A stretch of DNA of 64,000 nt from an uncultured Chthonomonadaceae bacterium (GTDB taxonomy: Bacteria; Armatimonadota; Chthonomonadetes; Chthonomonadales; CAJBBX01), in contig CAYSDM010000024.1 in NCBI GenBank assembly GCA_964429855.1, positions 266-64,265 of the forward strand, written 5' to 3'. Below the pieces are notes generated by a model. That model was not told the origin of the DNA, did not search any database, and saw nothing but the letters and a program-made list of their open reading frames with translations. The translations under genes and the position numbers were made by a program. This document shows positions 1,663-34,524 of the stretch, piece after piece (position 1 is the first letter of the stretch; every line of letters starts with the position of its first letter).

Positions 1663-1722
1663 TCTGCAGGATAACGATTGCGCGGGTCGAGATCCGCCGT
1701 CCGCGCAGAAAGAGAACAAGCG

Positions 1723-1896: not shown

Positions 1897-1918
1897 GACG
1901 CGAGAAGGAGTTGAAGAG

Positions 1919-2665: not shown

Positions 2666-2673
2666 ACAGAAAA

Positions 2674-2709
2674 GCCCGCCATAGACAGATAGTCCGGTCT
2701 ATGGCGGGC
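2674..2709. terminator. Bidirectional intrinsic-terminator-like hairpin between convergent genes
   Basis: Perfect 13-bp stem gcccgccatagac / gtctatggcgggc with a 10-nt loop. The flanking aaaa on the + strand gives a T-run for the minus-strand transcript. Confidence 0.6.
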
Positions 2710-2716
2710 GCAAGGT

Positions 2717-3190
2717 CTATCGCTCTCTCTCCCGTATCACAAACTGCACCCTGTCGGGCAGGCGGGGAACGATACGCATGGCGAACGGCTGCGTAAGCGC
2801 AAGCGTAACAATCGTGCCTTTCCCCGGCTTAATCAGCGTGGCATTCACCGTTGCGCCGCGCACGCCGCGCCGTATTTCGCCGATGACAACCTCGAAACCG
2901 CCCGTCGGCTTCGTCCCGGCAAAGACCGCCACCACATGATATCGTCGAAAATCCACCGTCGGCGCTCTGCGGTCGGGAGCGTGTTCTTTCCATAACGCCG
3001 ACCACTCTCCAGCGTTCCGAATCACTGTTTGACGCGGTGCGCGTATATTCGAATGGAAGCCGGACAGCGCTCGAGAAACCTGCGCCTCCTGTAAGGTGGA
3101 CTCAGGCTGACCCTGTCCTGCCAGACCGATCATCAGACCGGCAGCCGCCAACAGGAATCCAGCGCCGCTATATACTAAGCTACGGAGCAT
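2717..3190 (-). CDS. PrcB-like (protease complex subunit PrcB C-terminal domain) secreted or membrane-anchored protein
   Basis: N-terminal hydrophobic segment GAGFLLAAAGLMIGLAG. Core W..LW....P.VDF....VVAVF.G.K.TGG in EWSALWKEHAPDRRAPTVDFRRYHVVAVFAGTKPTGGFEVVI. Confidence 0.6.
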   Translation of the reverse strand: MLRSLVYSGAGFLLAAAGLMIGLAGQGQPESTLQEAQVSRALSGFHSNIRAPRQTVIRNAGEWSALWKEHAPDRRAPTVDFRRYHVVAVFAGTKPTGGFEVVIGEIRRGVRGATVNATLIKPGKGTIVTLALTQPFAMRIVPRLPDRVQFVIRERER

Positions 3191-3316
3191 CTTCCCTATC
3201 CTCTCTCATGTTGACAACGACTATCACAGGCTCTATACGATCTCGCTCCCACAGATGTGACAGCGAACGATAATAGACATTTTATCGTAGAGAGAAGCAT
3301 ACAGGGAGAAAGCGCG

Positions 3317-16066: not shown

Positions 16067-16094
16067 CCGTCCGTCAACGGCGACTTATCCGATT

Positions 16095-16125
16095 GGGTCT
16101 TTGCGGTCTCAGTACGCAAAGACCC
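16095..16125. terminator. Hairpin between convergent genes
   Basis: Perfect 11-bp stem gggtctttgcg / cgcaaagaccc with a 9-nt loop, followed by attctatt. Confidence 0.5.
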
Positions 16126-16186
16126 ATTCTATTCCAACACGTTCTTCGGTCCAGGTGAAGGCGTCTCTTCGTCAACGTCATCCCTA

Positions 16187-17473
16187 TCATCTCGTTCCAA
16201 CCGCTGCGAGATAGGCTTTCACGGCGGAGTGCATTCCCTGCACGATCCTGTCGGACGCGGCTCTATCCAGCCGATAGGCATCAATGCCCACGCCGGAAGG
16301 GTTCTCCACCGCATGGGCGTCCACCATCTCATTCCAGCTATAGAAGCCGATTCCGTTGGCAATCGCCGCCGTATCCATTCCGTGTTCGCCGCTCAACATC
16401 TCGCTGACCCGATAGCAGATCACCACATCCGCCCGGCTCATTTTACGAAAGCGCGTAATCGCATCGCGCTCCAGCTGAGTGGGACGCCCCTGTATCCAGC
16501 GCAGGATAAGAATATCGGCAAAGCGAAACGCCTCCGGCAGCGCGGCGCAGCTCCACTGATAGGCGGGTCCATGCGGATGGGGACAGTCGAAGGAATAGGG
16601 CATCTCCGCCAGAATCAGCAGGTCGGGGAAACGCCGTTTCAGGCGCTTCGTGATCTCTGTAAAGACAGCGTTTCCCGTCTCTGCCCGGAAGAGCGCATGA
16701 TCCCTTACGGCAGGCGGAAGATGCTTCTGCGGGTCGGAGTAGTCGAAGAGGCGCGTCTCTCGCGGATCAATCTCCTCAAATGCGCCGAACTGCGTGCCCC
16801 AGGCGCGATTCAACCGGGGCAGGTCTTCCTGATACCGCCGCTTGAGCCAGAGGATAAAGGCGCGATTCGTCTGCGCATCATACATGGTTATATCGAGTTC
16901 GCAGCCGAGAGTCACCACCGGACGCGCCTTCCCTTCTTTCATAACATGCAGCAGCGCGCCGTCTTTCGCATAGCGTTCCACATAACGGGAGACATAGGCA
17001 GTCAGGTAGTCCTTGAACTGTGCCGAGGTGATAAGCGAGCCGCCCTGACTACCGTCCTGTCTTACCGTCAGAGGAATGTCCGCCGAGACACCCAGCGCTT
17101 TCGCTGCCCACTGCCTCCGATCGCCTATCGAGATATCGTTGCCGCCATGCGCCTCCAGCCAGGGAACGATCACAAATCCGCACTCTTTCGCCAGCCGATG
17201 CTCGCGATCCAGCCATTTCCACTCCCCGTCCAGCGACTGCGAAAACTCATGATCCACCAGCAGCGTGTTGAACCCCATCGCCTTCAGCCGACGCAGATCA
17301 CGGCGGATCGCCTCATCATCGGACATCCAGGGCTGCCACCAGTGACCAAAGAAGTAGATAGCGACCATCGGTTCGCCGTTCGGAAGCCTCAGAGACGGCA
17401 GAGAGCGCGTTCCCTGCGCACATACCGATCCGGCAAGCAGCATGAGAAACATCAGTACGATCAACAGGCGCAT
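16187..17473 (-). CDS. Secreted TIM-barrel glycoside-hydrolase-like protein (GH42/GH5-like N-domain)
   Basis: Signal peptide MRLLIVLMFLMLLAGSVCAQG. DEAIRRDLRRLKAMGFNTLLVDHEF..WKWLDREHRLAKECGF resembles the first strands of beta-galactosidase-type barrels. Family assignment is tentative. Confidence 0.55.
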   Translation of the reverse strand: MRLLIVLMFLMLLAGSVCAQGTRSLPSLRLPNGEPMVAIYFFGHWWQPWMSDDEAIRRDLRRLKAMGFNTLLVDHEFSQSLDGEWKWLDREHRLAKECGFVIVPWLEAHGGNDISIGDRRQWAAKALGVSADIPLTVRQDGSQGGSLITSAQFKDYLTAYVSRYVERYAKDGALLHVMKEGKARPVVTLGCELDITMYDAQTNRAFILWLKRRYQEDLPRLNRAWGTQFGAFEEIDPRETRLFDYSDPQKHLPPAVRDHALFRAETGNAVFTEITKRLKRRFPDLLILAEMPYSFDCPHPHGPAYQWSCAALPEAFRFADILILRWIQGRPTQLERDAITRFRKMSRADVVICYRVSEMLSGEHGMDTAAIANGIGFYSWNEMVDAHAVENPSGVGIDAYRLDRAASDRIVQGMHSAVKAYLAAVGTR

Positions 17474-17666
17474 GGCGTTTTCTCCTCACTCCTTCATTCC
17501 TCTCCTGATTCCACGCCTGCGGGAAATATATCCTTCTCTCCCTTTTTCAGCGAGAGATATATCCCGAAAAGAAAGATTGGAACCCTGAATCGGATAACGG
17601 AATGAGTCAGATAGCGTCATCTATTGTTAAAAGCAAACAGATCTCTTTAAAAAATGTCACCCTGAC

Positions 17667-17695
17667 TGGACAAAGTCGTTGAAACTCGTTATACT
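17667..17695 (+). promoter_or_regulatory. Candidate sigma70-like promoter for the amidase-GerMN-murI operon
   Basis: TGGACA (17667-17672), 17-nt spacer, TATACT (17690-17695), within an AT-rich 290 bp spacer. Confidence 0.4.
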
Positions 17696-17762
17696 GTTGC
17701 GGCACTAACTATTCGGATATGCGCGTCAGAGACCTGCTCTATTCTACGGGAGGTATAGATTA

Positions 17763-19676
17763 GTGAGGAGATGCGAACCGCGTTTTCGATTCGCAGCGGG
17801 TGCGCTTATTGTCATCGCTCTCAGCCTGATGGCTTCGACAGCGAAGGCGGATACGCTGACTCCGGTGCGCCTGCAGGTAGACGGCAAAGATATCTCCCTG
17901 AAAGTACAGCCCCTCTTTGATGGACGCGAGGTCTATTTGCCGCTTGAGGCGTTACGCGCCTTTGGAATCTCCTGGTCTGTCCTGCGACGCGAGGAGAGTG
18001 TCACTCTCACCTTTCCCGACGGCATCTCCTCTGAATTTGCGCTGGCGCACCCCCGGCATCAGCCGATGCTTCCCCTTTCCACACTGGTAAACGCTCTCAA
18101 TCTCAAAGCGCAGGTGGAGAACGGCGTCTGCAGCGTTCGGCTGCCCCGAACGGAATCAAGGCGCGAAGCCGGTTCCTCCAGCCGGATTCAGCGATGGGGA
18201 GCCGTTCCTCCGCAATCTCCCCCCCCCTCTACACAGTCAGAGTACCGAAAGAACGAGACGGCGCGCACCGGAAGCTCAGGGATCAGCGCAAAGCAGCCAT
18301 CTGATATTCAGAAGGGCGAATCGCTCGAAAACTTCACCACGCGCCCGACCGAAAACCGACCGAAGAACACGGCGCAAACAGACAGGCAGTCAGAACCGCC
18401 GGTCGCTCCCACCTCTACCGCCCGTTTAACGGCGCACGCAGGCTCCTCCTCCCCCGTGGTGTCACGGACTCTTGCGGAGAAGCCGACAATCCCTGTCCGT
18501 CAGGATCGCGAGGTCAATCCTGCTCCCGCCGTCCCACCTCGACAGAACGGCGCGCCTCCGGTACAGATTGCGGCATCTGACGGAAACGGGGAGCGTATGC
18601 AGGCTCCTCAGTCGCTGGACGGACTCGGCTCCTACTTCCAGAGAGTCTTCGAGAACGCGCAGGAGCGGAAGCCGCCTGCGGCCGCGACGAAACCGGCTCC
18701 CATACTGACCGCTATTCAAGATGTCATTCTGGAGCCGATGGGCGATGACCGCGCCAGACTGCGGATCGTGACCGGTGGGCGCGTGGGAGTCAGCGTTCGG
18801 TTTCTACGCCAGCCGACGCGACTGGCGATAGATTTGCCCAATACGCGCCTCGATTCTGAAGCGCGCTCCTGGAATGTGAACCATCCCCTTCTGTCGGAGA
18901 TTCGCGCCCGGACAGGCGAAACGCCCAACATTACGCGCCTGGAACTGAATCTCTCCAAACTGATCAGCTACAGTCTGGTCTCCTCAGGTCAGGACGGCGT
19001 GATATTCAATCTGACCCTGCCGCGCAACGCCGGACAACCGATCCAGGATCTGGTGGTGGTGGTGGATCCGGGACACGGCGGCTCTTCCACCGGATGCAGC
19101 TGGCCCGTCGGCAGCCAGCGCGTCTATGAAAAGCATCTGGCGCTCTCAATGGCGAAAAAGCTGCGGGAGATCATGGAGGAGGCGGGTATAAACGTAATCA
19201 TGACGCGCACGGAGGATGTGGATGTCAGCCTTTCCGCGCGTCCCGCCATCGCCAGCGATAATAACGCCCATCTTTTTATCAGCCTGCATATTGACGACTG
19301 CCGAATTCCCAACTCCGCCTCTGGAACCACCGTATACTATCATAAGAGCGAGCCGAGCAGCCGCACGCTGGCGCACTCCATCATAGAACGGATCGCAATG
19401 GTCAGCGGTCTGCCCAGCCGGGGAGCGCGCTCTGATACCGTCCTCTATGCCAGCGGTCTGGCGGTTCTGCGCGAGAGCGTAACTCCGGCAGTTTTAATTG
19501 AAGTCGGGTATATTAACCATTCAACGGATCGCGCAAAGCTCATGGACTCCGGATTTCAACAGCGTGTCGCGCAGGCCATCTTCGACGGAATTCGCGGCTA
19601 TGTGGAGAGCGCGTTGCCGGAACGCCGCTTCTCCCCCATTGCCCGCGAGACAGAACAGAGCGACTCTCCGCGCTGA
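17763..19676 (+). CDS. N-acetylmuramoyl-L-alanine amidase (Amidase_3) with Cu-amine-oxidase-N-like and AMIN-like domains
   Basis: VVVVDPGHGG, LFISLHID, GTTVYYH, AVLIEVGYINH. N-terminal LQVDGKDISLKVQPLFDGREVYLPLEAL, then a long Pro/Ser-rich linker. Confidence 0.9.
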   Translation: MRRCEPRFRFAAGALIVIALSLMASTAKADTLTPVRLQVDGKDISLKVQPLFDGREVYLPLEALRAFGISWSVLRREESVTLTFPDGISSEFALAHPRHQPMLPLSTLVNALNLKAQVENGVCSVRLPRTESRREAGSSSRIQRWGAVPPQSPPPSTQSEYRKNETARTGSSGISAKQPSDIQKGESLENFTTRPTENRPKNTAQTDRQSEPPVAPTSTARLTAHAGSSSPVVSRTLAEKPTIPVRQDREVNPAPAVPPRQNGAPPVQIAASDGNGERMQAPQSLDGLGSYFQRVFENAQERKPPAAATKPAPILTAIQDVILEPMGDDRARLRIVTGGRVGVSVRFLRQPTRLAIDLPNTRLDSEARSWNVNHPLLSEIRARTGETPNITRLELNLSKLISYSLVSSGQDGVIFNLTLPRNAGQPIQDLVVVVDPGHGGSSTGCSWPVGSQRVYEKHLALSMAKKLREIMEEAGINVIMTRTEDVDVSLSARPAIASDNNAHLFISLHIDDCRIPNSASGTTVYYHKSEPSSRTLAHSIIERIAMVSGLPSRGARSDTVLYASGLAVLRESVTPAVLIEVGYINHSTDRAKLMDSGFQQRVAQAIFDGIRGYVESALPERRFSPIARETEQSDSPR

Positions 19677-21418: not shown

Positions 21419-22918
21419 GTGAGTCTCATGTTTACCTGCCGAGTCTGTGGACGTTCTATAGCGGAGCCAAACCCGGAGAATCGCTACTGCCCCTACTGTG
21501 GAACCGCGTTCGTCCTCTCCTGCACCAATGAGCTTTGTGGAAACCGCGCGGATGGCATCGTCGTCCGCCGCAGCGCGACCTGCGGACAGTGCGGCGCGCT
21601 CTACCGCTATGCTCCCTCCAGCGGACTGCCGGTCCTTGTGCGTCACCTTGGACCGTTTCTTCCCCCGGAAGAGTCTGCGTCCGTGGCGGCCCAAACCGAA
21701 TCGCCCGCATTTCTCCAGGACCTTCTGCCAGCAAGCGGCAATCCTTTCAGCGATTCCGCCCTGCTCTCGCAGCAGCCTCCCGACATCTCCATCCCCGAAA
21801 AAGAGGCGGATTTTGCGGTCAATACGCGCCTGCACGATGTCGAAGCGCGGCATGGACGCATCTATCTGGTTCCTCAAAACGGGATGGTACAGGCGCTGGA
21901 TTACGAGTCCCTGACCCGCCTCAATTTCTGGGCGGGAGAGGTGCTGCCAAACTGGGTTCCCACTAATCCGCAGCCGGTAAAACTTCAGGTCTCTGAAACC
22001 ATCGTCTATGTGTTGCATCGGGGAGCCATCAGCGGTTACGACGCGGGCAACGGCAAAGCGATCTTCTCCCTCACCGTCAACGACCTGCGCGATATCCACT
22101 GCCTGCTCGTGCGTAACCGGCTGCTGGTGGTCGGCACGGCGGGAGATCAGAAAGAGTATGCGCGGCTTTTCGACATCGAACATCTGTGCGATGCCCGCAC
22201 TCCCGCCAAACGCCCGCTATGGGAGGGCGAGGTGCGCGGAAGCATCGCGCCGGGACAGGCGCTTCCAGCGAAACGACTGGGCGTTTTTGGCGGCTACTTC
22301 TACCTGATCTCCCGCAGCAGCCAGCTTCTTGCCCTGCCGATGGAGGGCGGCGGCTTTGAAACGATGTATGACAACTGGGGATCGCGCTCCATCCACGCCT
22401 GGACGATGAATGAGAGAGCAGGCATACTGTTCCTCTCCCCGCCCACCCCGCAGGGCTACTACTCGCTGGTGACCTTCACGCCGGGAACCGGAAAACCGGT
22501 CTCCAACGAGACTCAGTTGATGACGGTTCGCCCGCGCGAAAAGCCGCGCAGCGTCCTGCTCTGGGATGAAGACATCCTGCTGCTGGATGAGGCGGGAAGC
22601 CTGCAGAGACTTCCCCTGATCAATCCCAACAACCCGACGGCGAACTGGGGCGCGCTGACCGGTCTGCAGAATATTGCCGACCTCTATCCGCCTCTCCTGA
22701 TTCCCTGGGGCAAGCAGATGCACTTCGTTATGCAGGTAAAGGAGCAGCTATCTCACTCTTTCCGCCATGTTCCGCTGAGCAAGGCGTCTACCGGCTTCAG
22801 CGCCAAACTGCCGGCATCTCCCTCGGCGCGAGACGATGTGCGAGCTATCTACTGTGGTCCGAATATCTACGTGTGTAATATGACCAATGGGAACATTAAA
22901 CGACTACCTCTTCGCTAG
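21419..22918 (+). CDS. Double zinc-ribbon + PQQ/BamB-like beta-propeller protein (cluster gene A)
   Basis: CRVCG..14..CPYCG and CTNELCG..13..CGQCG at the N-terminus. Repeated strand patterns follow: IYLVPQNGMVQALD, VYVLHRGAISGYDAGNGK, FYLISRSSQLLALP, ILLLDEAGSLQRLP, IYVCNMTNGNIKRLP. The start could instead be ATG 21428. Confidence 0.7.
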   Translation: MSLMFTCRVCGRSIAEPNPENRYCPYCGTAFVLSCTNELCGNRADGIVVRRSATCGQCGALYRYAPSSGLPVLVRHLGPFLPPEESASVAAQTESPAFLQDLLPASGNPFSDSALLSQQPPDISIPEKEADFAVNTRLHDVEARHGRIYLVPQNGMVQALDYESLTRLNFWAGEVLPNWVPTNPQPVKLQVSETIVYVLHRGAISGYDAGNGKAIFSLTVNDLRDIHCLLVRNRLLVVGTAGDQKEYARLFDIEHLCDARTPAKRPLWEGEVRGSIAPGQALPAKRLGVFGGYFYLISRSSQLLALPMEGGGFETMYDNWGSRSIHAWTMNERAGILFLSPPTPQGYYSLVTFTPGTGKPVSNETQLMTVRPREKPRSVLLWDEDILLLDEAGSLQRLPLINPNNPTANWGALTGLQNIADLYPPLLIPWGKQMHFVMQVKEQLSHSFRHVPLSKASTGFSAKLPASPSARDDVRAIYCGPNIYVCNMTNGNIKRLPLR

Positions 22919-24464
22919 GCGCGTAAGCCGCGCCCGATCCGGCTCTCCCGGACGTCGGACACTGCTGTTTCCGGCGCTGATGATGCTCCTTTCACTGGGA
23001 CTGCTCTCCCCGCAGTCTGCTCTTTCGCAGACGCCTTATCGGGGCGACTTTTTCGATGTCTATCAGGAGATCACGCGCCAGCTTGCCACTCAATACAGGA
23101 TGGTCTGCAACCGACGTCTGCATGTGGTGCTGGTGCTGGACGTGTCGCGCAGCACGCAGCAAAACGGGATGGAGATCCGGTTCGGTCAGATATGGTCGAA
23201 GATGTGGGATAACTTCCTGCGCGATGGCGATATGGTGACGCTGCTTCCCTTTGCGTCCAATTCGCTGCCGACATCCGGTCCCTTCAAGAAATCCGACAAG
23301 AGCGGTTTTGACTCGGCGGTGGCGAAAGCGAAGAAAGACACTGCGCAGGATACCGGAACCGCGCTCTACACCGTGCAGCAGTCTGCACTGACAGAGGCGA
23401 AGCGCATTGCGGAGTCGGATAAAGACCGCGCCGTACTGGTGCTGATGTTCACCGATCTCGACGGTCCCAATGTCACGGCGAACACTCTGACTCAGGAGAA
23501 CAATGTCCGGGACACGGTCATCCCTGAGTTGATGAAAGAGTTCACGGTAGGCAGCCCGAAGAAGGAGCCGGCGCAGCCCCGCCCCACCCCGACGCCCGGT
23601 CAGCCTGCGCCCGGTCAACAGGGAACGCCTCCGCCCCCGGGTCTGCTGTTGATGCACAAGAAGTTCTACTCCATCCAGTCGGATGATCGAAAAGGCGCGT
23701 CTCCGCTCTGGCTTCACTCCGCGATGGAGTCGAAATGGCAGCAGAAGAAGGAGCAGGCGGTTTCACGCAAGATCGAGTCGCGTCCTACGGAGCCTCCTCC
23801 TCCTCCGGAGCCTCAGCCTGACCGCCGCCCGATCATTCGTCTGCTGGGTCTTCTGATCGGCTTTCTTGGATTTGCGTTTCTGCCGTTCCTGCGCTTCCGC
23901 GTGAAGGTGGTTCCCTCCGGCATCTCTCCCATCGGCGACACCGATAAAAAGGTCTCCGCCTATGGCAAGGTCACCGTCGCCGCGTGCAACACCGCCGAAA
24001 CGCCGGAGCCGCGCGATCTGTGGCTGCCCCTCCCCTACAGTAGCGCGACCCCGGAGCCGCTTATCACCATTAAAGGGCTGAAACCCGGCTCCTGCGTGGT
24101 TGAGAAGATTGGCGGTCATATGCTGACACCAGACGGAGAGGCTGCCAGCACCGTAGATATTCCCTACGGCGAGTCGGAGACGATTCGTGTCGGCATACGT
24201 CCCAATGAACTCTATCCCCTGCAGATTGTTCCGGGTTCCTGGATGGAGGGGAAACTGATCCCGCTTCTGATGACGATGCTCTTCTTCCTGTTCGGCTTTA
24301 TCGTGCTGGTGATCGGTCTGGCGATGAAAGCGCCGGAGCAGCCGGTGGCTCCAGAGCCGGAGCCTGCGATCACCGATGTCTGTCGCGCCACCGGCGGCAG
24401 CCTGATGGAGAGCGGCAGGATCGTTGTCTCGGAACTCAAATCATCGTCTGAAAATCGGGCATAA
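22887..24464 (+). CDS. vWA (MIDAS) domain membrane protein (cluster gene B)
   Basis: Signal/anchor RRTLLFPALMMLLSLGLLSPQSALSQ. MIDAS DxSxS in VVLVLDVSRST, then GTALY and VLMFTDLDG. Pro-rich linkers, and TM segments IIRLLGLLIGFLGFAFLPFL and LIPLLMTMLFFLFGFIVLVIGLAM. The start is uncertain and overlaps gene A by 32 nt. Confidence 0.7.
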   Translation: MGTLNDYLFARRVSRARSGSPGRRTLLFPALMMLLSLGLLSPQSALSQTPYRGDFFDVYQEITRQLATQYRMVCNRRLHVVLVLDVSRSTQQNGMEIRFGQIWSKMWDNFLRDGDMVTLLPFASNSLPTSGPFKKSDKSGFDSAVAKAKKDTAQDTGTALYTVQQSALTEAKRIAESDKDRAVLVLMFTDLDGPNVTANTLTQENNVRDTVIPELMKEFTVGSPKKEPAQPRPTPTPGQPAPGQQGTPPPPGLLLMHKKFYSIQSDDRKGASPLWLHSAMESKWQQKKEQAVSRKIESRPTEPPPPPEPQPDRRPIIRLLGLLIGFLGFAFLPFLRFRVKVVPSGISPIGDTDKKVSAYGKVTVAACNTAETPEPRDLWLPLPYSSATPEPLITIKGLKPGSCVVEKIGGHMLTPDGEAASTVDIPYGESETIRVGIRPNELYPLQIVPGSWMEGKLIPLLMTMLFFLFGFIVLVIGLAMKAPEQPVAPEPEPAITDVCRATGGSLMESGRIVVSELKSSSENRA

Positions 24465-24506: not shown

Positions 24507-24824
24507 ATGGCAGGACTTTTCGGAGATATGATGGCTCTGATCTGGATCGCGCTGATGGTGATCGGAATGATCTTTCTGGTCTACATGGTGCTTTTCTGGA
24601 TCTACTTCGGGATCTGTAAACTGAACGGACCGGTCGCAATCCGGATTGCGTGGACAGTCGGCGTTCTCAGCCTGCTGATCGTGCTCGCTTTCATCTTTCC
24701 CTTCCAGGCTCCCTATTTCAATCCGCTCAGCGGGGATATAGGTTCGCTGGTCAACATGGCGATTGTGGCGGTGATCTCGATGTTCTTTCTGATTATCGTC
24801 TGGGTGACCAAACCGAGTCTGTAA
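24507..24824 (+). CDS. Small polytopic (3-4 TM) membrane protein (cluster gene C)
   Basis: 105 aa, almost entirely hydrophobic helices. GGAGGAG SD 6 nt upstream. Confidence 0.6.
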   Translation: MAGLFGDMMALIWIALMVIGMIFLVYMVLFWIYFGICKLNGPVAIRIAWTVGVLSLLIVLAFIFPFQAPYFNPLSGDIGSLVNMAIVAVISMFFLIIVWVTKPSL

Positions 24825-24927
24825 GGTGTTCCTTCGTTCGCTTCCGGCGAAATAGCATGTATCGAATCAGAGGCTGCGCTCCGCGGCGCGCGGAAGCCCC
24901 TCTCACGCATTGTCAAGGAGACTGCAC

Positions 24928-27900
24928 ATGCTGCGTCCTGCACTGGTAATTGCCCTCGGCGGCACCGGCACGAACATCGTGCTCCGTCTGCGCGAACGCT
25001 TCCATATGATGTATGGAACTCCCGATCCGGAGGGCGTGCGCTATATTTTCGTAGATACCGACACGAAAAATAATCTGAGCCGGAGAGAGCTTCAGGGCTA
25101 TGCGGGTCGTACTATCGGGATCGCGGTCGGTCCCAACACCCTGAACGATCTGCAGATCCCCAACTCTCCTACGTCGCAGCGGCTTCGACTGGACGACTGG
25201 TTTGACCCCGACCTTCGCGGGCGGTTGACCAATCAGAGCTTTCAGGCGGGCGTTGGCGGGGTGCGTATGTACGGGCGGCTGGTGCTGCTGGCGGCGGATC
25301 AACTGCGGCAGCTTACGGAACTGATCAGCAATGACATTCAAGCGCTTCGCCGTAACGCCGCCGGAAACGATCCCGGCTCCCTGCACATCTTCGTCGCATC
25401 CTCCTCTGGAGGCGGAACCGGCAGCGGCTCCTTCATTGACATGGGCTATCTGACCCGGCTGATACTGCAGGACTTAGCGGTTCCGGGAGGCGTCTGCGAA
25501 CGTGAGGGGCTGCTGGCAATCGCCGTGCCGACCCTCGTTCCCGCGCCGCAGCAGGCGCGCAACTCCGCCGCCATGCTCTCCGAAATGGACTACTTCTGCG
25601 AGCCGGGAAATATCTTCCAGGCGGTCTATATTGATCGCCCCCTGCCGGAGAGCATTGGACGGGAAGCCCCCTACGACTATATTCTGCTCTCCTCCCCGAC
25701 CCAGGGAGATCAGGTGCTCAGCGAAAATCCCGTTCAGGCGATGGGGCTTCTGGAGAGCAAAATGGCGGACTATATCTTCATCCGCCTGACCGAACCCGGA
25801 CGCCTCGGCGGTCTGCTGCGCGATGTCCGCACCAACTGGCAGACCACTCCCCGCGACAACCGGGGCTATCCCAACCGCTTTATGACCTTCGGCGTCAGCA
25901 TCCGTCAGTTCCCCGTCGGTCTGGTGGAGATGCTCGGTTACCGTTACGCCATCCGCAACTTCACCTGGGGATGGCTGAAGCGACCCCGCGAGGGCGACTC
26001 CATTCTGGACGACTCCGAACTGGCAACCAGACCGGATATACAGCAGGCGTACACCAACGATCTGGCGGCTCTGCGCAAGCTAATCGGTCTGCCATCGGTG
26101 CATGAGCAGACCGGCAAGCAGCCCCGCGATGCCGTGAACGACGCGCTCTACGCCGAACTGATCCAGACCCAGCAGGAGGCGCTGGAGGCCTCTCTTCGCA
26201 GCCGCGCCAACGACGGCAAGGTGGACGATCTGTTCCAGTACTCCGGTGCGGATCAGCCCGTAGCTCCCGGCTCTCCCGGTTATGTTGCTGGAACGATCAG
26301 CCGTAACGCCACGCGCCTGATGAATCCCAATGAGCCTGCCAGTCTGTTCAATCGCATCCGCGATTACCTGTATGCGGCAGCATTTGATCGAACGCGAGGA
26401 CCGCGCTATGCCCAGCGACTGGCGCGCGACCTGGTGGAGGAGATGCGCCGCGAAGAAGAGTTCATGGATGAAGTGCTGCGCGCCGCCGGAATGGTGGGAA
26501 CCGGCGGAACCGGCGGAGGCGGTCTCAACCGCGCACAGAAGGTGCGCCGCGATTTTCTGCTGCTATTCTGGGCAGACACGGCGGCAAAGCGGGAGCGCGG
26601 CGGCAGTGGCGGCGGAGCCAGCGGCCCCTATGCCAACCGACGGTTTGAGACCAGCCTGTTGGAATCCAAGAAGTTTATCTATGGCACGCTGCGGGATAAG
26701 CTTCTGGTCGGCGGTGAAAACCTGGAAGGACGCTTCAAGCGACTCTCCGCCTATATCGAAGCCTGGGCGAATCAGGCGGAGATGTCGGCGGCGGACAATG
26801 AGAAGCTGGTCGAGAACCTGCCCTACGGCACGATCTATCCGAAAGACCGCATTGAAGAGAAGTGGAAGAACCTGACCCCGACCGTCTCGCAGGATAGTCT
26901 GGAGCCGCTTCAGCGTCAAACCCGCAGCCAGCAGTTCGGCGTGGATATGCCCAAAGACCCACGTGGCGCGCCGGACTTTGCCCCGTTTGAGAACATCGGC
27001 GAACAGATTCGCGCCGCGCTGCGATCAGAGGCGGGAGAGTCCGCCAGCTCGATCTACGGAGAATCGGTGCTGCGCCTGATCGCCGAGATCAACGAAGGAA
27101 ACCTGGAGCCGACATGCCAGCAGATGGCGTCGGAGAGCCGCCCGCTGCTGAATCTGCGGCTGGACGCGCCGGGATACGCCGAACTGCTCAACAGCCGCAC
27201 CTCCTTCGGTCAGCCGACCTACCTCTGGTTCGCGATGGCAAGCCCGGAAGCGGATTTCAACTCCTATCAGGCGTTCTGGACAAGCACCCTGCGCGCCGCG
27301 CAGGGGATCACCCCGGTGGTGCGCGCCAATCCCGACGCCCCCATCCGCGACGACCTGAAGATCAAAAATGGCAGCATTGCAGCCCTGATATTCGTCCGAG
27401 CCGCCTTCCCCTCGCGCATTATCAACCAGTATGAGCAGGATGATCGCTGGGGACTGCTCTTCCCGCCCAATGCGACGACGATCACCACGCCCTTCACGCA
27501 GACCGGCATCCTCCTGCCGCCCCCGCTTGCCGTGTTGGACGAGGCGCGCGTACTGCTGATGCTCGGCGAGACTCTGCGAGTCATGCCCAACGACCCGAAC
27601 GAGTTTGCGACCGAACCCAAAATCACCTGGGGCGGCGCGGAGCACACGTTCGAGTATCAGCTCGGTCCGTATGAAGTGGAGCGAATGCGCTACCCGAAGA
27701 ACGACTTTGAGCGCGCCGCCTATCTTCTGGCTGTCAACGAGAAGGCTCTCAGCGCGCTGCGAAAAGCTCTCAACCTGCGCGCCGGAGATATGAACCAGCG
27801 AGGCATTATCGCGGAGAAGATCGTTCAGGAGATACACAAACTCAACGACCGTATCCTTAACGCCCCCGGCGGCGCGATGCAGGGCTACTACGACAGCCTC

Positions 27901-28122
27901 GATCTTGGCGGCATCAAGTATCCGGAATCGCGCAAGATGCTGTTCGAAGGCGCAAAAAAACTCGGCATTGACCTGTTCATCATAGACCCCAGTCTGCACC
28001 CCTGGGCGAAACCAAGCGATGCCGACAGTCTCTGGCGATGCAACAAGTGCAACTATGTCCTGGGAGCCGAGGTGCCGGATATGCAGGGCGAGTGTCCTAA
28101 CTGCGGTCATCCTAACCGTTAG
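24928..28122 (+). CDS. Large tubulin/FtsZ-superfamily GTPase-like protein with C-terminal zinc ribbon (cluster gene D)
   Basis: T1-like VIALGGTGTNIV, FVDTD, and the tubulin signature in VASSSGGGTGSGSFIDMGYL. C-terminus CNKCN..16..CPNCG. AAGGAG SD at 24915-24920 supports ATG 24928 over the track's TTG 24910. Confidence 0.85.
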   Translation: MLRPALVIALGGTGTNIVLRLRERFHMMYGTPDPEGVRYIFVDTDTKNNLSRRELQGYAGRTIGIAVGPNTLNDLQIPNSPTSQRLRLDDWFDPDLRGRLTNQSFQAGVGGVRMYGRLVLLAADQLRQLTELISNDIQALRRNAAGNDPGSLHIFVASSSGGGTGSGSFIDMGYLTRLILQDLAVPGGVCEREGLLAIAVPTLVPAPQQARNSAAMLSEMDYFCEPGNIFQAVYIDRPLPESIGREAPYDYILLSSPTQGDQVLSENPVQAMGLLESKMADYIFIRLTEPGRLGGLLRDVRTNWQTTPRDNRGYPNRFMTFGVSIRQFPVGLVEMLGYRYAIRNFTWGWLKRPREGDSILDDSELATRPDIQQAYTNDLAALRKLIGLPSVHEQTGKQPRDAVNDALYAELIQTQQEALEASLRSRANDGKVDDLFQYSGADQPVAPGSPGYVAGTISRNATRLMNPNEPASLFNRIRDYLYAAAFDRTRGPRYAQRLARDLVEEMRREEEFMDEVLRAAGMVGTGGTGGGGLNRAQKVRRDFLLLFWADTAAKRERGGSGGGASGPYANRRFETSLLESKKFIYGTLRDKLLVGGENLEGRFKRLSAYIEAWANQAEMSAADNEKLVENLPYGTIYPKDRIEEKWKNLTPTVSQDSLEPLQRQTRSQQFGVDMPKDPRGAPDFAPFENIGEQIRAALRSEAGESASSIYGESVLRLIAEINEGNLEPTCQQMASESRPLLNLRLDAPGYAELLNSRTSFGQPTYLWFAMASPEADFNSYQAFWTSTLRAAQGITPVVRANPDAPIRDDLKIKNGSIAALIFVRAAFPSRIINQYEQDDRWGLLFPPNATTITTPFTQTGILLPPPLAVLDEARVLLMLGETLRVMPNDPNEFATEPKITWGGAEHTFEYQLGPYEVERMRYPKNDFERAAYLLAVNEKALSALRKALNLRAGDMNQRGIIAEKIVQEIHKLNDRILNAPGGAMQGYYDSLDLGGIKYPESRKMLFEGAKKLGIDLFIIDPSLHPWAKPSDADSLWRCNKCNYVLGAEVPDMQGECPNCGHPNR

Positions 28123-28175: not shown

Positions 28176-28201
28176 AGAGACGCTAGAGCGAGGAGAAAAC
28201 G

Positions 28202-29107
28202 GTGCGCTACTACAAACAGGACTGGGTGGCTATGGGAGTGAAACCGGGAGGCGGCTCGACCGGCAGCATTCCGCTGGCAGCGCTCTTTTCCGTGATTCTG
28301 CTGGCGGGGCTGGGGGTTCTGGCGTTTTTCCTGGGCAACTTCAGCGGATTTGGCGGCGGCAATCCCGGCGATGCGACTGTCTTCATAGACTGCCAGTGGC
28401 AGATTAATCTGGCGGATGGACGGCAGGTACAGACTGGAGGAAGCGGTTCCGGCACGATCATCCATCCCAACGGCAAAGTCATCACCAATCACCATGTCGT
28501 CTTCATGAACAGCCTGAAGACACAGGAAGGCGAGATACCGCTCGATCAGGAGGTCGAGGCGTCGAAGATCACCGTCTACCTTCGCAGCGGAACCAACGAG
28601 GTGAAGAAGATGGAGGCGCAGGTCTTAGATACCGACCGCACCGGAAAGACCTGGACGGGCGCATCGCTGGACGATATGTGGCACGACTGGGCAGTTCTTC
28701 AGATCAAGAATCCCCCGCCCGATCTGCCCTATGTACGCATCGGGGACAGTCGCAAGGTGGGGCAGAACAACAAGATCACTGTCTTCGGCTTTCCGCTGGG
28801 ACAGAAATACCAGGTCGAAGAGGGCAAAGGTCCAGCGATGACGGTGGTTCCCGGCGTGGTGAAGCGGATCGTTCCGCCCAACCCCAACACCTTCTTCTAT
28901 TTCGTTCACAGCGCGAATGTGCAGCCCGGCAACAGCGGCGGTCCGCTCATCAACGACGCCTCGAAGGAGCAGGTCGGAATCAATACACGGATTTCCGTCA
29001 TTCGCAGCATGGAGGGAGCCTCCAGCGATGAACACTATACGATCCCAACCCACAAACTGGAAGAGGTCTGGAAGAAGCACGCGAAGTCACAGGCGTTCGG
29101 CAAGTAG
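28202..29107 (+). CDS. Membrane-anchored trypsin-like (S1/HtrA-type catalytic domain) serine protease (cluster gene E)
   Basis: N-terminus MRYYKQDW + TM. Complete triad context: His in GKVITNHHVV, Asp in HDWAVLQI, Ser in GNSGGPLIN. GTG start with AGGAG SD. Confidence 0.85.
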   Translation: MRYYKQDWVAMGVKPGGGSTGSIPLAALFSVILLAGLGVLAFFLGNFSGFGGGNPGDATVFIDCQWQINLADGRQVQTGGSGSGTIIHPNGKVITNHHVVFMNSLKTQEGEIPLDQEVEASKITVYLRSGTNEVKKMEAQVLDTDRTGKTWTGASLDDMWHDWAVLQIKNPPPDLPYVRIGDSRKVGQNNKITVFGFPLGQKYQVEEGKGPAMTVVPGVVKRIVPPNPNTFFYFVHSANVQPGNSGGPLINDASKEQVGINTRISVIRSMEGASSDEHYTIPTHKLEEVWKKHAKSQAFGK

Positions 29108-29139
29108 TCCTCTGATCGCAACAGGGCAGGAGCAAGCGA

Positions 29140-29985
29140 ATGCGATACTATAAACAGGACTGGGCCGTGTCCGGTCCGGTCAAAGAGACCAGCGGCGGAA
29201 GCATTCCGCTCGCCATCCTATTCTCTTTGATCATCTTTATTGCGCTGGGAGTGCTGGCTTTCCTCTTCGGCGGCGCGCTTCCGTCTATCGGGCGCGAAGA
29301 CCTGAAGAATGTGGTGCTCATCATCAGCACGCAGTATCCGGGAGAACAGACGCGATTTTTCACCTCCGGCGTGCTGATTAAGTCGGATGGGACTCTCATC
29401 ACGACCTACAAGAACCTGAACCGGGCAGATCAGGGCGGTAATCTGGTCAAACCAGAGAAGATCGTCGTGATCCTTCCGCCGGAGAAGCAGGGAGACCAGC
29501 CGCGCGAATTTGAAGCGCAGGCGCTGGATGCCAATAAGTCGCCGGAAGAGGCGCTCTCCAGCGATCTGGAGAAGATGTGGCACGACTGGGAACTGGTGAA
29601 GATCAAGAACCCGCCGAAAGGACTGCGCGCCCTGCCCATCGGCGACAGCGCCAGCATCAAGCCGCAGGATAAGGTCACGGTCGCCGGTCTCTCGCAGGCG
29701 CAGCAGCCCATGCGATACGAAGGCATCAATATCGCCGACGGGCAGATCACCAAAGTGGTGCCGCCGAACAATCCCCGCAACTCCATCTACTTTGCGCACG
29801 ATGTCAAGGTGGATCGCGGCAGTTCGGGCAGCGCGGTGGTGGACCAGCGCACCGGACAGATGATCGGTCTGCATATCAAAACCGATACCGACGAGCGAAC
29901 CGGACGTTCGGAGTACTTCGCCGTCCCGTCGCGCAAGCTCGCGGACGCCTGGCGCGCCGCGGGGCTGGATAACTATCCGAAGTAG
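29140..29985 (+). CDS. Paralogous membrane-anchored trypsin-like protein lacking the catalytic His (probable pseudo-protease; cluster gene F)
   Basis: Same MRYYKQDW + TM N-terminus. The aligned His position reads GTLITTYKNL, Asp is kept (HDWELVKI), and the Ser context is GSSGSAVV. Confidence 0.75.
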   Translation: MRYYKQDWAVSGPVKETSGGSIPLAILFSLIIFIALGVLAFLFGGALPSIGREDLKNVVLIISTQYPGEQTRFFTSGVLIKSDGTLITTYKNLNRADQGGNLVKPEKIVVILPPEKQGDQPREFEAQALDANKSPEEALSSDLEKMWHDWELVKIKNPPKGLRALPIGDSASIKPQDKVTVAGLSQAQQPMRYEGINIADGQITKVVPPNNPRNSIYFAHDVKVDRGSSGSAVVDQRTGQMIGLHIKTDTDERTGRSEYFAVPSRKLADAWRAAGLDNYPK

Positions 29986-29999: not shown

Positions 30000-32474
30000 A
30001 TGAACTGCATGGTCTGTCAGCGACAATTCGACCCCAACGATCCCGATATCTGTTACTGTCCGCGCTGCGGATGGTCGCTGGGACAGTTGAGCGTTGCGCT
30101 GCATCCCGAAACCCTGATTCTTGCCGGTCCGCGTCCGGTTCCACTGACCCTGATCTGCCGTAATACCGGATTCGGGAAGCTGAAGTGCGAACTGGATCGC
30201 GACAGCCTGCCGCCGGGCGTTACGCTCGCGCAGGGCAGCGAGTCCTCGCTGCAACTCACCTCGCAGCCTCAGGAGATTCGCCTGCTGGTAGACCCGCGAA
30301 ATCTGGAGAAAAATCTGTCGGTGCTGCCGGTGGTGCTCCACTCGTATGATCGGCGCGGACAGCATCGGATGGATTTTCGTCCGGCGTCTCTGGAAGCGGG
30401 GCGCGTCGCGCAGCCCTGCGCCCTTCCTATTCAGAGAATGCGCTTCGGTCCGGTGCAGATTTTTCAGGAGATGCTGCTGTTTCGCAGCCTTCAGCGCAAA
30501 CAGAAACTTCAGGTGCAGAATCTGGGCGATGTGGAGGTGGTGCTGGCATTGACGGCGCCCTCCGGCTTTCAGCTTCGTTATGGCAGCCAGCCTCCCGCCG
30601 GATCGTTCACCATGCGTTTGAGCGGAACGCCGGTTCCAGAAGAGATCACGGTCGAAGCGACCACAACCGGCGCGCCCGTTCAGCGCGGAGGCGCGCCGCT
30701 GATTCTGCGCGTGGAGGTGGCGGATCTGCCGGATGACAGCCGGGATATTCAACTGCTCTGGATTCCGGAAGAGACGGTCGAGACCCAGCGTAAGCGATGG
30801 ATCATCGGCATTGACTTTGGCACGGCCAAGACCGCCATCTTCTACAGCGACTGCAACCTGCCCCAGCCGCAGCCCCGCCCCGCCAGATGGCTGATGCCGA
30901 CCGGTGATGTTCGCATCAAAGTTCCGTCGGTCATCATGTATCCGTACACCAGCCCGCTTCCGCCGCGCTGCGGTTGGGATGTGCCGGAGACCGCCGAGGT
31001 GGACGGGCGCGATGTGGTGGTGCGCTCCATTAAGAAGCGGCTGACGGACGAGACGGCGATTGAATACGAGTTGTCGGACGGAACCGTTCTGACGGTGGAT
31101 CAGGTGGTCGAACACTATCTGCGGTTTATTGTGGGCAAGTTCCGGCAGCAGGATGCTTTTCGGGGCGAAGGCAACCCGTTTGACAACGCGCAGGTAGTGT
31201 TGAGCCTGCCGGTGCGCGATGATGAGGAGCAGTACGAGGAGCAGAAGCGGCGCACGATCAATGCGGCAGTGCGTGTCGGGTTAAATGAAGACCAGATTCT
31301 CTGCTATACGGAGCCGGAGTGCGCGGCGGTAGACTTTCTGCGTCGGCGGCAGGAGCTAGGCATGACGGTGCAGCAGGGCGACCTGCTGTGCGTCTTCGAC
31401 TGCGGGGCGGGAACGACGGATATCTGCCTGCTTCAGCTTCACTACAGCGGCGGCGAACTCAGCTTCACCCGACGCGCGCTGGCGGGATTCCCCTTCGGCG
31501 GAGACGTGATTGACGAACTGCTGACCCAGTATGTGCTGGATGAGTGGCTGGAGAAGGGCAAGTTCCACGAGTATAACGCCGACTTCTCAATGTTCCATCT
31601 CAAGGGCGAAGCGCAGGCGCGCACACGGCGGTTCCTGCTCTCTGCGCTGCGCCGGGTCAAGGAGCGTCTCGCGTTTGTAGACCCGGATCAGCTTCAGCCC
31701 AACAACGAGCAGAGCGTCTCCTTCAGCTACAACAACGATCCGGCCGACGCGATCCCGATCACCTGGTCTCTGATCGAGACGCTGTTCCGTCCCTATGTGC
31801 AGAAGATTCTCAGCGAGGGCTTTGATCCCAATGATATGATTCCGGACTGGACGAAAGAGCAGCCGCAGGGGCGTCCGGTGGGAGTGAAGCTGCCTTCGCT
31901 CAACTCCGTGCTGTGGCGCGAGGGGCTGGATGCCGTGGACATCCGCTGGCTCTGTCTGACGGGAGGAAGCAGTTTTATCCCGTTCCTGGTGAAGATGCTG
32001 CAGAATATGTTCCCGCACGCCGCGCTGGTTCCTCCGGTCACCATGATCCCGGATATGCTGCGTGAGCAGGATACGCCGATGACCCTCAATGTGGCGCAGG
32101 GCGCGGCGGCGCGCCCCCTCTACCGGGTCGAGGGACAGCTTCCGCTGGACTACCTGCTTCAGTATAGCTCCAGCAGCGGAATGACCGAACCGACCGTTGT
32201 GCTGACCAAAGGCGGCGCGCCGGGCAAGATCGGACCGCAGCAGGCGTACCGGCTGATGGCGGGTGATACCGGCACGCTCCGGCTGATCGCGCAGGTTGGC
32301 GGAGAGCGTGGAACCGTCTACAAGAAAATCCTGAAAAACCCGTATGAGGACAAGCATATCAGCGTGCTGGCGCAGGTCGAATACGGACGTGATATGAAGG
32401 TCTATCTGACCATCTCCTTCGGGGTAGACAACGACGTGATACCTATTCTGGAGAAGATCGCCGTCGTCGAATAG
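30000..32474 (+). CDS. Hsp70/actin-fold ATPase with N-terminal zinc ribbon and two beta-sandwich-like domains (cluster gene G)
   Basis: CMVCQ..11..CYCPRCG. Phosphate-1 IIGIDFGTAKTAIFYS, phosphate-2 VFDCGAGTTDICLLQL, adenosine motif LCLTGGSSFIPFLVKML. Short beta-rich C-terminus with no helical lid. Confidence 0.85.
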   Translation: MNCMVCQRQFDPNDPDICYCPRCGWSLGQLSVALHPETLILAGPRPVPLTLICRNTGFGKLKCELDRDSLPPGVTLAQGSESSLQLTSQPQEIRLLVDPRNLEKNLSVLPVVLHSYDRRGQHRMDFRPASLEAGRVAQPCALPIQRMRFGPVQIFQEMLLFRSLQRKQKLQVQNLGDVEVVLALTAPSGFQLRYGSQPPAGSFTMRLSGTPVPEEITVEATTTGAPVQRGGAPLILRVEVADLPDDSRDIQLLWIPEETVETQRKRWIIGIDFGTAKTAIFYSDCNLPQPQPRPARWLMPTGDVRIKVPSVIMYPYTSPLPPRCGWDVPETAEVDGRDVVVRSIKKRLTDETAIEYELSDGTVLTVDQVVEHYLRFIVGKFRQQDAFRGEGNPFDNAQVVLSLPVRDDEEQYEEQKRRTINAAVRVGLNEDQILCYTEPECAAVDFLRRRQELGMTVQQGDLLCVFDCGAGTTDICLLQLHYSGGELSFTRRALAGFPFGGDVIDELLTQYVLDEWLEKGKFHEYNADFSMFHLKGEAQARTRRFLLSALRRVKERLAFVDPDQLQPNNEQSVSFSYNNDPADAIPITWSLIETLFRPYVQKILSEGFDPNDMIPDWTKEQPQGRPVGVKLPSLNSVLWREGLDAVDIRWLCLTGGSSFIPFLVKMLQNMFPHAALVPPVTMIPDMLREQDTPMTLNVAQGAAARPLYRVEGQLPLDYLLQYSSSSGMTEPTVVLTKGGAPGKIGPQQAYRLMAGDTGTLRLIAQVGGERGTVYKKILKNPYEDKHISVLAQVEYGRDMKVYLTISFGVDNDVIPILEKIAVVE

Positions 32475-32508
32475 TCTACTGTGCGAACCATGACGCATGA
32501 GGGATCCC

Positions 32509-34524
32509 ATGAAGATGACCCCCTATTCCATGCCATGTTTAAGCGTCAGGCGACTGCGCCTGCTGCCGATTCTTGCGCTGCTGCTGCTGTCGCTGCCGTT
32601 AGACGCGCAGTCAGTCTATACCCCCTGGCAGAAGGGGAACGGAAAGATACAACCGACCGGTGACAGGCAGGCGATAATACAGCCGCCGAAGGCCGCCGGG
32701 GAGTATGCCTTCATTCAGTTGAACGAACTCAAGGGAAAGAGCTGGAGCGTTCAGGCTAAAGTCATTCTGGAGGGTGTCGTTCCGACGAATCTGCCGAAAA
32801 ATGCCATCACTCCGATCTTTCAGCTAAACAATAAGATGGCTGAACCGGGTAAGTGGAACTACCAGATGGCGCTGAGTCTGGACTGGGGGCAGGATGGCAA
32901 ATCCACGCCGCGCATCGCGCTCCCTCAGGGTCTGAGACGCGACTTTCAGCCGATCCAACTGCCTCAGGTCTTCCATGTTCGCGTCCAGCGCAAAGAAGAT
33001 CAGGTAACCATCGCGCTGCTGAAAGAGAGCAGCGAGCCGCCGCTGAGCGAAGTCACTCTTCCCGCCACCGGAGATACCCTCTACATGACATGGGGTTCGC
33101 TGGGGACCGATACGAAACACACCACCTTTGAATGGCGGATCAACGATCTGGAGATCAAGCAGGGAGAAGCCGCCAGCCCCGGCGTGACTCCCCAACCCGT
33201 ACAGAATCAAGGGGGGGCGGCGGAGGGGCAGCCACAGGCGGAGGATCCCCGCGTGAGCAAGGCGACACAGCAGGCGGGAGGCGCGCTCGTGCTGGGCGCG
33301 CTTGCGCTGCTGGCGTCGCTGCTGGCAATTGTGCTGACCGTCGTGACCTTTGTGCTGAACCGCGGAAAAGGAGCCAAAGATTCCGGGGAACTGCCCGGCA
33401 AAATCACCGCCATCGAAACGCGGGTGAATACGCTCAACAGTCAGATGGCGACCAAACAGGATATCCAGAACAGCCGGGAGCAGATCACGAAAGACCTGAC
33501 AGAGAGGGTGCAGCAGGGTTTCGTAAAACTGGATGATCGGATGAAGGCGGCGGAGGCGGCGGTTCAGTCCGCCAGCTCCTCCGCGCCGCCGTCCTCCAGT
33601 GATGGACTGGACTATCGTGTGCAAAGCTGTGAGGCGCAACTGCAGCAGATCGCCGGGCAGATTCAGAATCAGAACAGCGACATCAGCAACCTTCGCGCCA
33701 CGCTGAATACGCTGATGGATAAGATCACTCTCCTGAATCGCGCGCTCCAGCAGATGGAGCAGGCGCAGCGCAACGCCCAGCAGGTTCAGACGACGGCTGC
33801 CGTCTCCCCCTCCACGCCAACTGCGAACGCCGGGACCGTGGAACCCGGTCTGGAAGATCGTTATCATACGACCCATCCGGCGACAACGCCAGCGGTCACC
33901 ATCATCCAGAGCGGGCCGAGCGGGACGCCGCCCGCCGATAACGGCGGAACGGTTGTCTCCTCCACGCCGCCTGCATCCTCTAACGCTCCTCTCTGGGAGA
34001 CACAGTGGAGGCAGCTCCGGCAGAGCCTCAACGCCCATCGCGCTTCGGTAACCGTCGAGAGCTTCAGCAAAGACCTGGATATGCTGGAGACCTACTTCAA
34101 GACGCTGATCGAAAAGTGGGAGACGCTCAAGCCGCCCGCCGAAGACGCGCATATGTGGGATGAGTGGCTGTTCAGTAATCTGGACTACCATCTCTATCAG
34201 GCGCCGCGCCTGACCTCGCTCGGAGAGGTTTCGCCGGAGATTCGAGGCGCGCTGGAGCGGATGCGCTCCGTGATCGAACAGGCGCAGGAGGCGCGCAAAG
34301 CGCAGTTGCGCGAGTGGGAACTGGAACGAATCGAGGGCGTTCCCGGCAAAGACCGCGCCACCGCCTATGTCATGGAAGCCGACCCGGAGAACCCGCCGGA
34401 GCCGACCACCGATCCGCGAAAGGACTACACCTTCTCGCATATCGTTCCCGGCAGAGGCGGATACCGGTTCCGGGGGCGCGTGCTGCGGAAAACGCACGCC
34501 GTTTTCTATCAGTTCAAGGGATAG
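32509..34524 (+). CDS. Single-pass receptor-like protein: signal peptide, beta-rich ectodomain, TM, long coiled coil, C-terminal domain (cluster gene H)
   Basis: Signal peptide [52 protein letters not shown]-rich heptad region ([24 protein letters not shown] ... [29 protein letters not shown]). GAGGGA SD supports ATG 32509. Confidence 0.7.

Follow-up and report, generated by a model that had tools for sequence, protein, structure and literature searches.

A predicted single-pass HtrA-fold protease and its putative pseudoprotease paralog share a conserved N-terminal peptide in a tubulin-like operon

We analyzed a 64,000-nucleotide stretch of DNA from an uncultured Chthonomonadaceae bacterium (GenBank assembly GCA_964429855.1, contig CAYSDM010000024.1, forward-strand positions 266 to 64,265; hereafter, the window) and, within it, two adjacent genes, E and F, which belong to a cluster of eight genes (A to H) on the same strand. 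E encodes a predicted single-pass HtrA-like serine protease with an intact catalytic triad, and the evidence supports its paralog F being a catalytically dead pseudoprotease. Both proteins start with the same eight residues, MRYYKQDW, and relatives of this stub, marked by a pair of tyrosines, recur at the N terminus of a family of HtrA-fold proteins encoded beside tubulin-like genes. This undescribed, invariant N-terminal motif, which joins the HtrA fold to a tubulin-like system, is what is new here. The best joint account of the data, which we favor with modest confidence, is that the YY stub couples an HtrA-fold ectodomain to cytoplasmic machinery, with E cleaving and F acting as a noncatalytic partner.

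Gene E (28202..29107, GTG start) encodes 301 aa and gene F (29140..29985, ATG start) encodes 281 aa; these genes, and all others of the cluster, lie on the plus strand. Shine-Dalgarno-like sites precede both starts (GAGGAG at 28190-28195 for E and AGGAG at 29128-29132 for F). No earlier start is possible between either start and the in-frame stop codon that precedes it, so neither stub can be extended upstream. The proteins are paralogs, with 32% identity over 296 columns (BLASTP, E = 8e-46), and both match Pfam Trypsin_2 (2.4e-21 for E and 2.7e-16 for F). Their AlphaFold2 (AF2) models share one plan, which consists of a low-confidence N-terminal tail, one transmembrane (TM) helix, and a two-barrel protease domain (predicted local distance difference test score, pLDDT, 81.8 for E and 85 for F; predicted template modeling score 0.78 each). 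The stubs (E, 28202..28225; F, 29140..29163) are predicted to be disordered, with pLDDT <50 at residues 1-5 of E, a block mean of 48 over its residues 1-10, and pLDDT <50 in most of residues 1-19 of F. A G-rich GGS..SIPLAxLFS segment in each protein continues into the TM helix, which spans aa 25-45 in E (28274..28336; hydropathy peak 2.62, residues 25-43) and aa 22-43 in F (29203..29268; hydropathy 3.03) and is helical in both models. The ORFs, Pfam, and AF2 thus agree with the order of stub, G-rich segment, TM helix, and trypsin-like domain that an earlier note on this DNA had described for both proteins.

The protease domain covers aa 55-296 of E (28364..29089) and, in degenerate form, aa 55-273 of F (29302..29958). 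Both proteins end a few residues past it, and neither has a PDZ domain detectable with Pfam or NCBIfam models. When we compared E with the PDB by sequence (phmmer), it matched an HtrA chain (1l1j, 8.6e-13); F, unlike E, matched no HtrA chain in the PDB by sequence. The top Foldseek matches of the F model in the PDB were DegQ, DegP, DegS, and HtrA1, at about 1e-13 to 1e-11. An HtrA-type chymotrypsin-fold domain is therefore present in both, recognizable from the sequence of E and from the model of F. E also contains an insertion of about 20 residues directly after the catalytic His (aa 101-119, 28502-28558), predicted to form an extra beta-hairpin, which neither F nor any other aligned member of the family has. 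In position, the insertion is reminiscent of the regulatory LA loop of DegP-type HtrAs.

The His-Asp-Ser triad is complete in E, with His98 (codon 28493-28495), Asp162 (28685-28687), and Ser245 (28934-28936), and incomplete in F, in which Lys91 (29410-29412) occupies the catalytic His position, Asp149 (29584-29586) is retained, and Ser229 (29824-29826) stands at the nucleophile position. The surrounding motifs quoted in the earlier note are all present: TNHHVV (within ITNHHVV), HDWAVLQI, and GNSGGP in E, and TTYKNL (within ITTYKNL), HDWELVKI, and GSSGSA in F. The family alignment is ungapped around the catalytic His and places Lys91 of F against His98 of E. The four F orthologs, which come from close relatives, all have Lys instead of the catalytic His, and in two of them (P0048 and P0050, with GSAGSA) the nucleophilic Ser has become Ala. 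The only His residues in F are His148, His220, and His245; residues 1-147 contain none, so no alternative His in the N-terminal barrel can substitute. When four lineages are compared in pairs, F has dN/dS values of 0.12-0.18 and E has values of 0.10-0.17. F has thus lost catalytic residues, kept the fold, and remained under purifying selection, which are the features that define a pseudoprotease. The proposal in the earlier note that F is catalytically dead is supported by the loss of His in every ortholog, the loss of Ser in half of them, and an AF2 model that is a confident HtrA fold with no other His in the catalytic position. We also considered whether F is a decaying pseudogene and rejected this given its dN/dS values.

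One part of the N-terminal barrel of F (29327..29626) differs from the rest of the operon in its pattern of identity. Loci L005 and L008 are about 99% identical over the operon (97-100% in nearly every 300-bp DNA window), and they share only 81% DNA identity in this stretch, where L008 resembles L001 (92%) and L005 resembles the sequence analyzed here (89%). Together with supporting dS values, the drop indicates a short recombination tract.

The stub is identical at 8 of 8 residues in a pair of proteins that otherwise have diverged to the overall identity given above, and it is kept in all eight E and F orthologs. To define the wider family, we used an exhaustive HMMER search of 1.84 billion representative sequences, with clusters at 50% identity. 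The search returned 14 proteins below 1e-30, and the family, a rare one of S1C type, comprises about 35 clusters of proteins of 230-304 aa in which a (R)YYxx[DN]W stub is followed by a linker, a TM helix, and a protease domain. The consensus of the stub is M-R-Y-Y-x-x-[DN]-W-V, with a second flavor, [FT]-Y-Y-[AP]-N-N-x-[IV]-L, in one clade. In a 25-sequence alignment (32% mean column identity), M1, Y3, and Y4 do not vary, and the positions of H98, D162, and S245 are nearly invariant. Of 37 family members, 36 have a YY pair within their first 15 aa, compared to 4 of the 283 other HtrA-like proteins examined; the 37-member set was chosen partly on the YY motif, yet all of the full-length best-scoring matches carry YY. 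The length of the linker between stub and TM helix is highly variable, giving N-terminal tails (N-tails) of 19-59 aa. Triad residues are lost in the F clade, P0063 (Ser to Glu), P0065, P0074, P0100, P0162, and the L012 protein; judged from these sequences, the triad has been lost independently at least six times in the family.

No stub-plus-TM pattern was found in the other ORFs of the window, and two extra stub matches in the 10 other loci (one at an internal start in the L103 gene at the vWA position, the other in a short ORF in L014) were judged spurious. A word-indexed profile search was dominated by PDZ-bearing HtrA proteins and added just the Burkholderiales-type subfamily, and a metagenome scan for further operons returned 80 loci of generic HtrA type, none with tubulin-like or Hsp70-like neighbors. 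None of the curated Pfam, NCBIfam, and PADLOC models is specific to the YY-protease family, and literature searches found no description of it.

These data support the stub being a selected peptide. At the DNA level, the E and F stubs differ at 3 of 24 positions, namely, the start codon (GTG/ATG) and synonymous changes in two further codons (CGC/CGA and TAC/TAT). We rejected recent gene conversion or an RNA-level signal as the source of the shared stub, given these synonymous differences and the distant orthologs that retain YY and W despite different codons and neighboring residues. Conservation of the stub holds well beyond the window's lineage, as the earlier note would predict. Its picture of a conserved cytoplasmic stub stands as regards the invariant YY and, statistically, a cytoplasmic N terminus. 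The statistical argument comes from 32 nonredundant members, in which Lys and Arg number 112 in the N-tails versus 62 in the 25 aa after the TM helix (Wilcoxon p=4.6e-4), with 23 members biased toward the N-tail, 4 equal, and 5 reversed. This distribution favors an orientation like that of DegS, with the stub in the cytoplasm and the protease domain outside it. A docking-peptide role fits both the conservation of the stub and this topology.

We examined conservation of the operon in 11 sampled examples (the window type, L003, L012, L013, L014, the Burkholderiales-type L016-L020, and L101-L105) from Armatimonadota, Burkholderiales-type genomes, and unassigned metagenome contigs. In all 11, the YY-protease gene comes directly after a Tubulin_2 gene (gene D in the window), and the stop and start codons sometimes overlap. 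The gene for the Hsp70-like ATPase G is directly downstream in eight operons and 3-4 genes downstream in the other three; G homologs are present in all 10 other loci (tblastn, 1e-61 to 1e-153). Homologs of A occur in 7 of the 10, and the remaining three contigs stop short of the A position. The C-terminal ...PG.GGYR... domain of H (34300-34521) has homologs in 9 of the 10, wherever the contig reached that far. A vWA-type gene is present in several operons, and homologs of C are present in L012, L014, and L105.

The sole YY-protease has lost catalytic residues and is itself dead in three of these operons: L012 (3613-4410), with Gln/Glu/Asn at the triad positions; L102 (P0063, 3491-4282), with Ser replaced by Glu; and L104 (P0100, 8594-9373), with Asp/Asn/Phe. 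The triad is intact in L013, a close relative of L012. A tandem pair of proteases occurs only in the window's Chthonomonadales lineage, and each of the other 10 operons encodes a single one. The nearest non-F relative of F is E (35%, with all others at 30% or less), and in a neighbor-joining tree the F clade, with a far longer branch, groups with E as its sister. The pair most likely arose by a duplication within this lineage, after which F lost catalysis and changed at a faster rate, although bootstrap support for monophyly of E and F is weak, at only 35/100.

We propose that the stub, with its variable and flexible linker, would serve as a cytoplasmic handle that couples the extracytoplasmic HtrA-fold domain to cytoplasmic machinery. 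Tubulin-like D would be the most likely partner because the order of D and then the protease gene is fixed, with beta-propeller A and Hsp70-like G as alternatives. E would supply proteolysis, and F, as a diverged noncatalytic copy, would add a second tether together with a surface for binding or allostery. The two proteins would probably form mixed HtrA-type oligomers, in an arrangement like that of MamO and MamE. That F regulates or scaffolds E and that the stub docks onto the Hsp70-like or tubulin-like protein, both raised in the earlier note, are hypotheses; Zn-ribbon beta-propeller A becomes a third candidate partner. Because a dead protease is all that some operons encode, the ectodomain is more likely to have been conserved for binding a ligand or partner than for cleavage, and the conserved role of the family is probably noncatalytic, rather than F existing only to control E.

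Several points weigh against this account. D, G, and A all co-occur, and gene order thus cannot separate the candidate partners. Mixed E-F oligomers, although probable, are proposed by analogy with HtrA trimers alone, and the idea that F exists to regulate E is weakened because dead-only operons need no active partner. The orientation is drawn entirely from the positive-inside rule, and the charges flanking the TM helix of F, taken by itself, are ambiguous. Trypsin-like domains also occur in cytoplasmic defense proteins, and E matches the PADLOC models RT-Protease_XI (2e-11) and LmuA, which would suit a reversed topology with the protease domains in the cytoplasm beside the tubulin-like and Hsp70-like proteins and the YY tail outside the cell. 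We nevertheless consider such a reversal quite improbable in view of the positive-inside bias across the family, the several members with Lys/Arg clusters right before the TM helix, the N-tails of up to 59 aa, and the N-terminal hydrophobic, signal-like segments of B and H, which by eye lead into apparent extracytoplasmic domains. DegS, DegP, DegQ, and HtrA1, the nearest structural relatives, are extracytoplasmic proteases. The motif might also determine membrane insertion, interfacial anchoring, or turnover, as an aromatic interface anchor or an N-terminal degradation signal, rather than docking; it is always placed in the first 3-15 residues and abounds in Tyr and Trp, which prefer interfaces. 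This seems unlikely to us, as signal anchors need no conserved sequence and the motif is confined to proteases of this operon type, with YY rare in the other HtrA-like proteins compared, many of which are membrane anchored. The variable length of the linker disfavors an interfacial role tied to the helix.

Other explanations concern F itself. If Lys91 acted as a general base for Ser229, F could retain noncanonical catalysis through a Ser-Lys dyad, a proposal that draws on the Lys shared by all four orthologs and on the retention of Asp149, Gly227, and Ser229 in the F of the window. We regard it as extremely improbable because two orthologs have Ala in place of the Ser and yet are otherwise equally constrained; moreover, GNSGGP has degenerated to GSSGSA. 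Ser-Lys dyads occur in other folds and are not known in the chymotrypsin fold. F could alternatively work independently of E as a noncatalytic receptor or decoy that arose after duplication, binds an envelope or invader-derived ligand, and signals by way of its own YY stub to the same machinery in the cytoplasm. In favor of this reading, single dead proteases suffice in L012, L102, and L104; F sits on a long branch, and its N-terminal barrel contains a recombination tract; the L104 operon has BrxB/BrxE and GmrSD genes on its two sides; and a decoy function has been proposed for inactive enzyme domains of related conflict systems (Kaur et al. 2020, PMC7159879). Purifying selection on F, with no sign of diversifying selection in the dN/dS range given above, and the housekeeping genes that surround the operon in all close relatives make this reading doubtful. 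A broader form of the coupling account is one that we offer tentatively, as a possibility. YY-tagged HtrA-fold proteins may be transmembrane coupling subunits of an envelope-spanning machine driven by the FtsZl1 GTPase and the actin/Hsp70-fold ATPase, with YY as a new short linear motif by which the FtsZl1 polymer is recruited to, or nucleated at, the membrane, in the service of envelope remodeling or defense against invaders. If so, the periplasmic fold would act mainly as a ligand sensor, and catalysis would have been lost repeatedly for that reason.

The closest functional precedent for E and F is the magnetosome pair MamE and MamO. MamO is a degenerate, noncatalytic HtrA-fold paralog that promotes MamE-dependent proteolysis, and pseudoproteases have several independent origins (Hershey et al. 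2016, PMC4794232). As in that pair, a membrane-associated HtrA-type protease is encoded here with a retained paralog that has a degenerate active site. Actin-like (MamK) and FtsZ-like proteins are likewise encoded in magnetosome gene clusters. In contrast, E scores only 21.4 and 17.0 bits on the NCBIfam MamE and MamO models, which have cutoffs of 800; E and F have no Pfam domain beyond the trypsin-like one and no PDZ, and their operon lies outside a magnetosome island; and the YY stub and fixed Tubulin_2 neighbor are features of the E/F family. E. coli DegS, the site-1 protease of the sigma-E envelope stress response, likewise has an N-terminal TM anchor followed by an extracytoplasmic HtrA domain, and its protease domain is among the best structural matches to the F model. 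However, DegS senses C-terminal YxF peptides with a PDZ domain, which E and F do not have, and E reaches 30 bits on the DegS model versus a cutoff of 423. We know of no conserved cytoplasmic N-terminal peptide in DegS. The Csp pseudoproteases of Clostridioides difficile (CspC and CspA with active CspB) offer a further likeness, in that dead paralogs are reported to be retained as sensors or regulators of the active one; they differ in having a subtilisin fold, in being soluble spore proteins, and in serving an unrelated pathway.

The operon as a whole belongs to a described class. Operons that combine vWA and FtsZl1 genes with membrane proteins have been proposed to encode a membrane-remodeling machine, and a supplementary table of the same study records a Do-type serine protease beside FtsZl1 in Gemmata and a DnaK-like gene in Magnetospirillum (Makarova & Koonin 2010, PMC2875224). 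With the Tubulin_2 protein D (2e-36) encoded together with the vWA gene B and membrane proteins, the window operon has the composition of this class. The main text of PMC2875224 mentions neither the protease nor Hsp70, and the YY stub, the evolution of pseudoproteases, and a core of A, B, D, protease, G, and H are not described there. Another related group, the DO-GTPase/GAP1 conflict systems, brings together tubulin homologs, extracellular-vWA proteins, Hsp70-family proteins, Zn ribbons, and membrane components, and trypsin-like peptidases and inactive enzyme domains recur in it (Kaur et al. 2020, PMC7159879). No Walker A motif was found in any of the eight operon proteins, nor did any match a GTPase family in Pfam or NCBIfam; we therefore rejected membership in these systems, given that the defining P-loop GTPase is absent. 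Nor was a GAP1 protein identified, with libraries that include no GAP1 model. PADLOC recognized no known system at the operon and gave generic protease and coiled-coil matches only, with none for A, B, C, or D.

Overall, the operon extends two known kinds of system, the protease/pseudoprotease pairs and the FtsZl1-vWA operons. FtsZl1/Tubulin_2 proteins have been known from genomes since 2010 (PMC2875224), and our literature searches turned up no functional or comparative work on the family after that date other than Kaur et al. 2020. The analysis defines a conserved core for that system, which consists of the beta-propeller, the vWA protein, the tubulin-like protein, the YY-protease, the Hsp70-like ATPase, and the coiled-coil protein. 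An 8-residue peptide on a single-pass protein is also an experimental handle that can be mutated, synthesized, or used as bait, and the occurrence of active, dead, and paired active/dead versions in one operon framework provides a natural test case for the repurposing of a protease fold.

The remaining genes of the cluster are as follows. Gene A (21419..22918) encodes a Zn ribbon (CxxC..CxxC motif) and a predicted PQQ-like beta-propeller; the protein has no Pfam hit, and a profile built from eight orthologs matches designed "Cake" beta-propellers (9e-7) and a PQQ-repeat protein in the PDB. With this combination of Zn ribbon and beta-propeller, A is a plausible peptide-binding platform. No TM segment or signal peptide was noticed in A on reading the sequence, and no analysis aimed at them was made. 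Gene B (22887..24464) encodes an N-terminal signal-like segment, a vWA domain (Pfam VWA, 3.2e-5) with an intact metal ion-dependent adhesion site (DVSRS), and downstream hydrophobic stretches. Gene C (24507..24824) encodes a small, largely hydrophobic protein of 105 aa that is probably embedded in the membrane. Gene D (24910..28122) encodes the Tubulin_2/FtsZl1 protein, with a GGGTGSG signature and a C-terminal Zn ribbon, and gene G (30000..32474) encodes an N-terminal Zn ribbon and an Hsp70/actin-fold ATPase (Pfam HSP70, 4.5e-6). The protein encoded by gene H (32497..34524) has N-terminal and mid-protein hydrophobic segments, a coiled coil, and a C-terminal ...GRGGYR... domain. With dN/dS values of 0.24-0.42, H evolves faster than any other gene of the operon. 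In the Burkholderiales-type loci, its C-terminal domain occurs as two small stand-alone proteins (L019, 17136-17696 and 18624-19175).

A and B overlap by 32 nt (22887-22918) and the other spacers of the operon measure 14-85 nt, consistent with a single transcription unit. Zn ribbons of the CxxC...CxxC type occur in three soluble-looking proteins (A, 21437-21499; G, 30006-30068; D, 28039-28104), and those of A and G are alike (C-x-V-C ... Y-C-P-x-C-G). The ribbons of A, D, and G may represent a shared targeting module.

The nearest record to the window is CALLMM010000011.1, in which protein G is 93% identical, and G had no relative in the plasmid and phage collections that we searched. The window operon is flanked by housekeeping genes in all close relatives, with murI, an ABC ATPase, and malic enzyme as neighbors. 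In L104, BrxB/BrxE (BREX) genes and a GmrSD restriction gene border the operon (1-2330 and 16970-18817), and the L101 operon is flanked by transposases (1643-2089, 5882-6721, and 15410-16540); these flanks hint at defense-island or mobile contexts outside the window's lineage. Just upstream of the operon in L105, a separate Hsp70/MreB-fold protein is fused to an FHA domain (1541-3262), and its gene adjoins those for a Ser/Thr kinase and a sigma-70-type factor, which may be regulatory add-ons.

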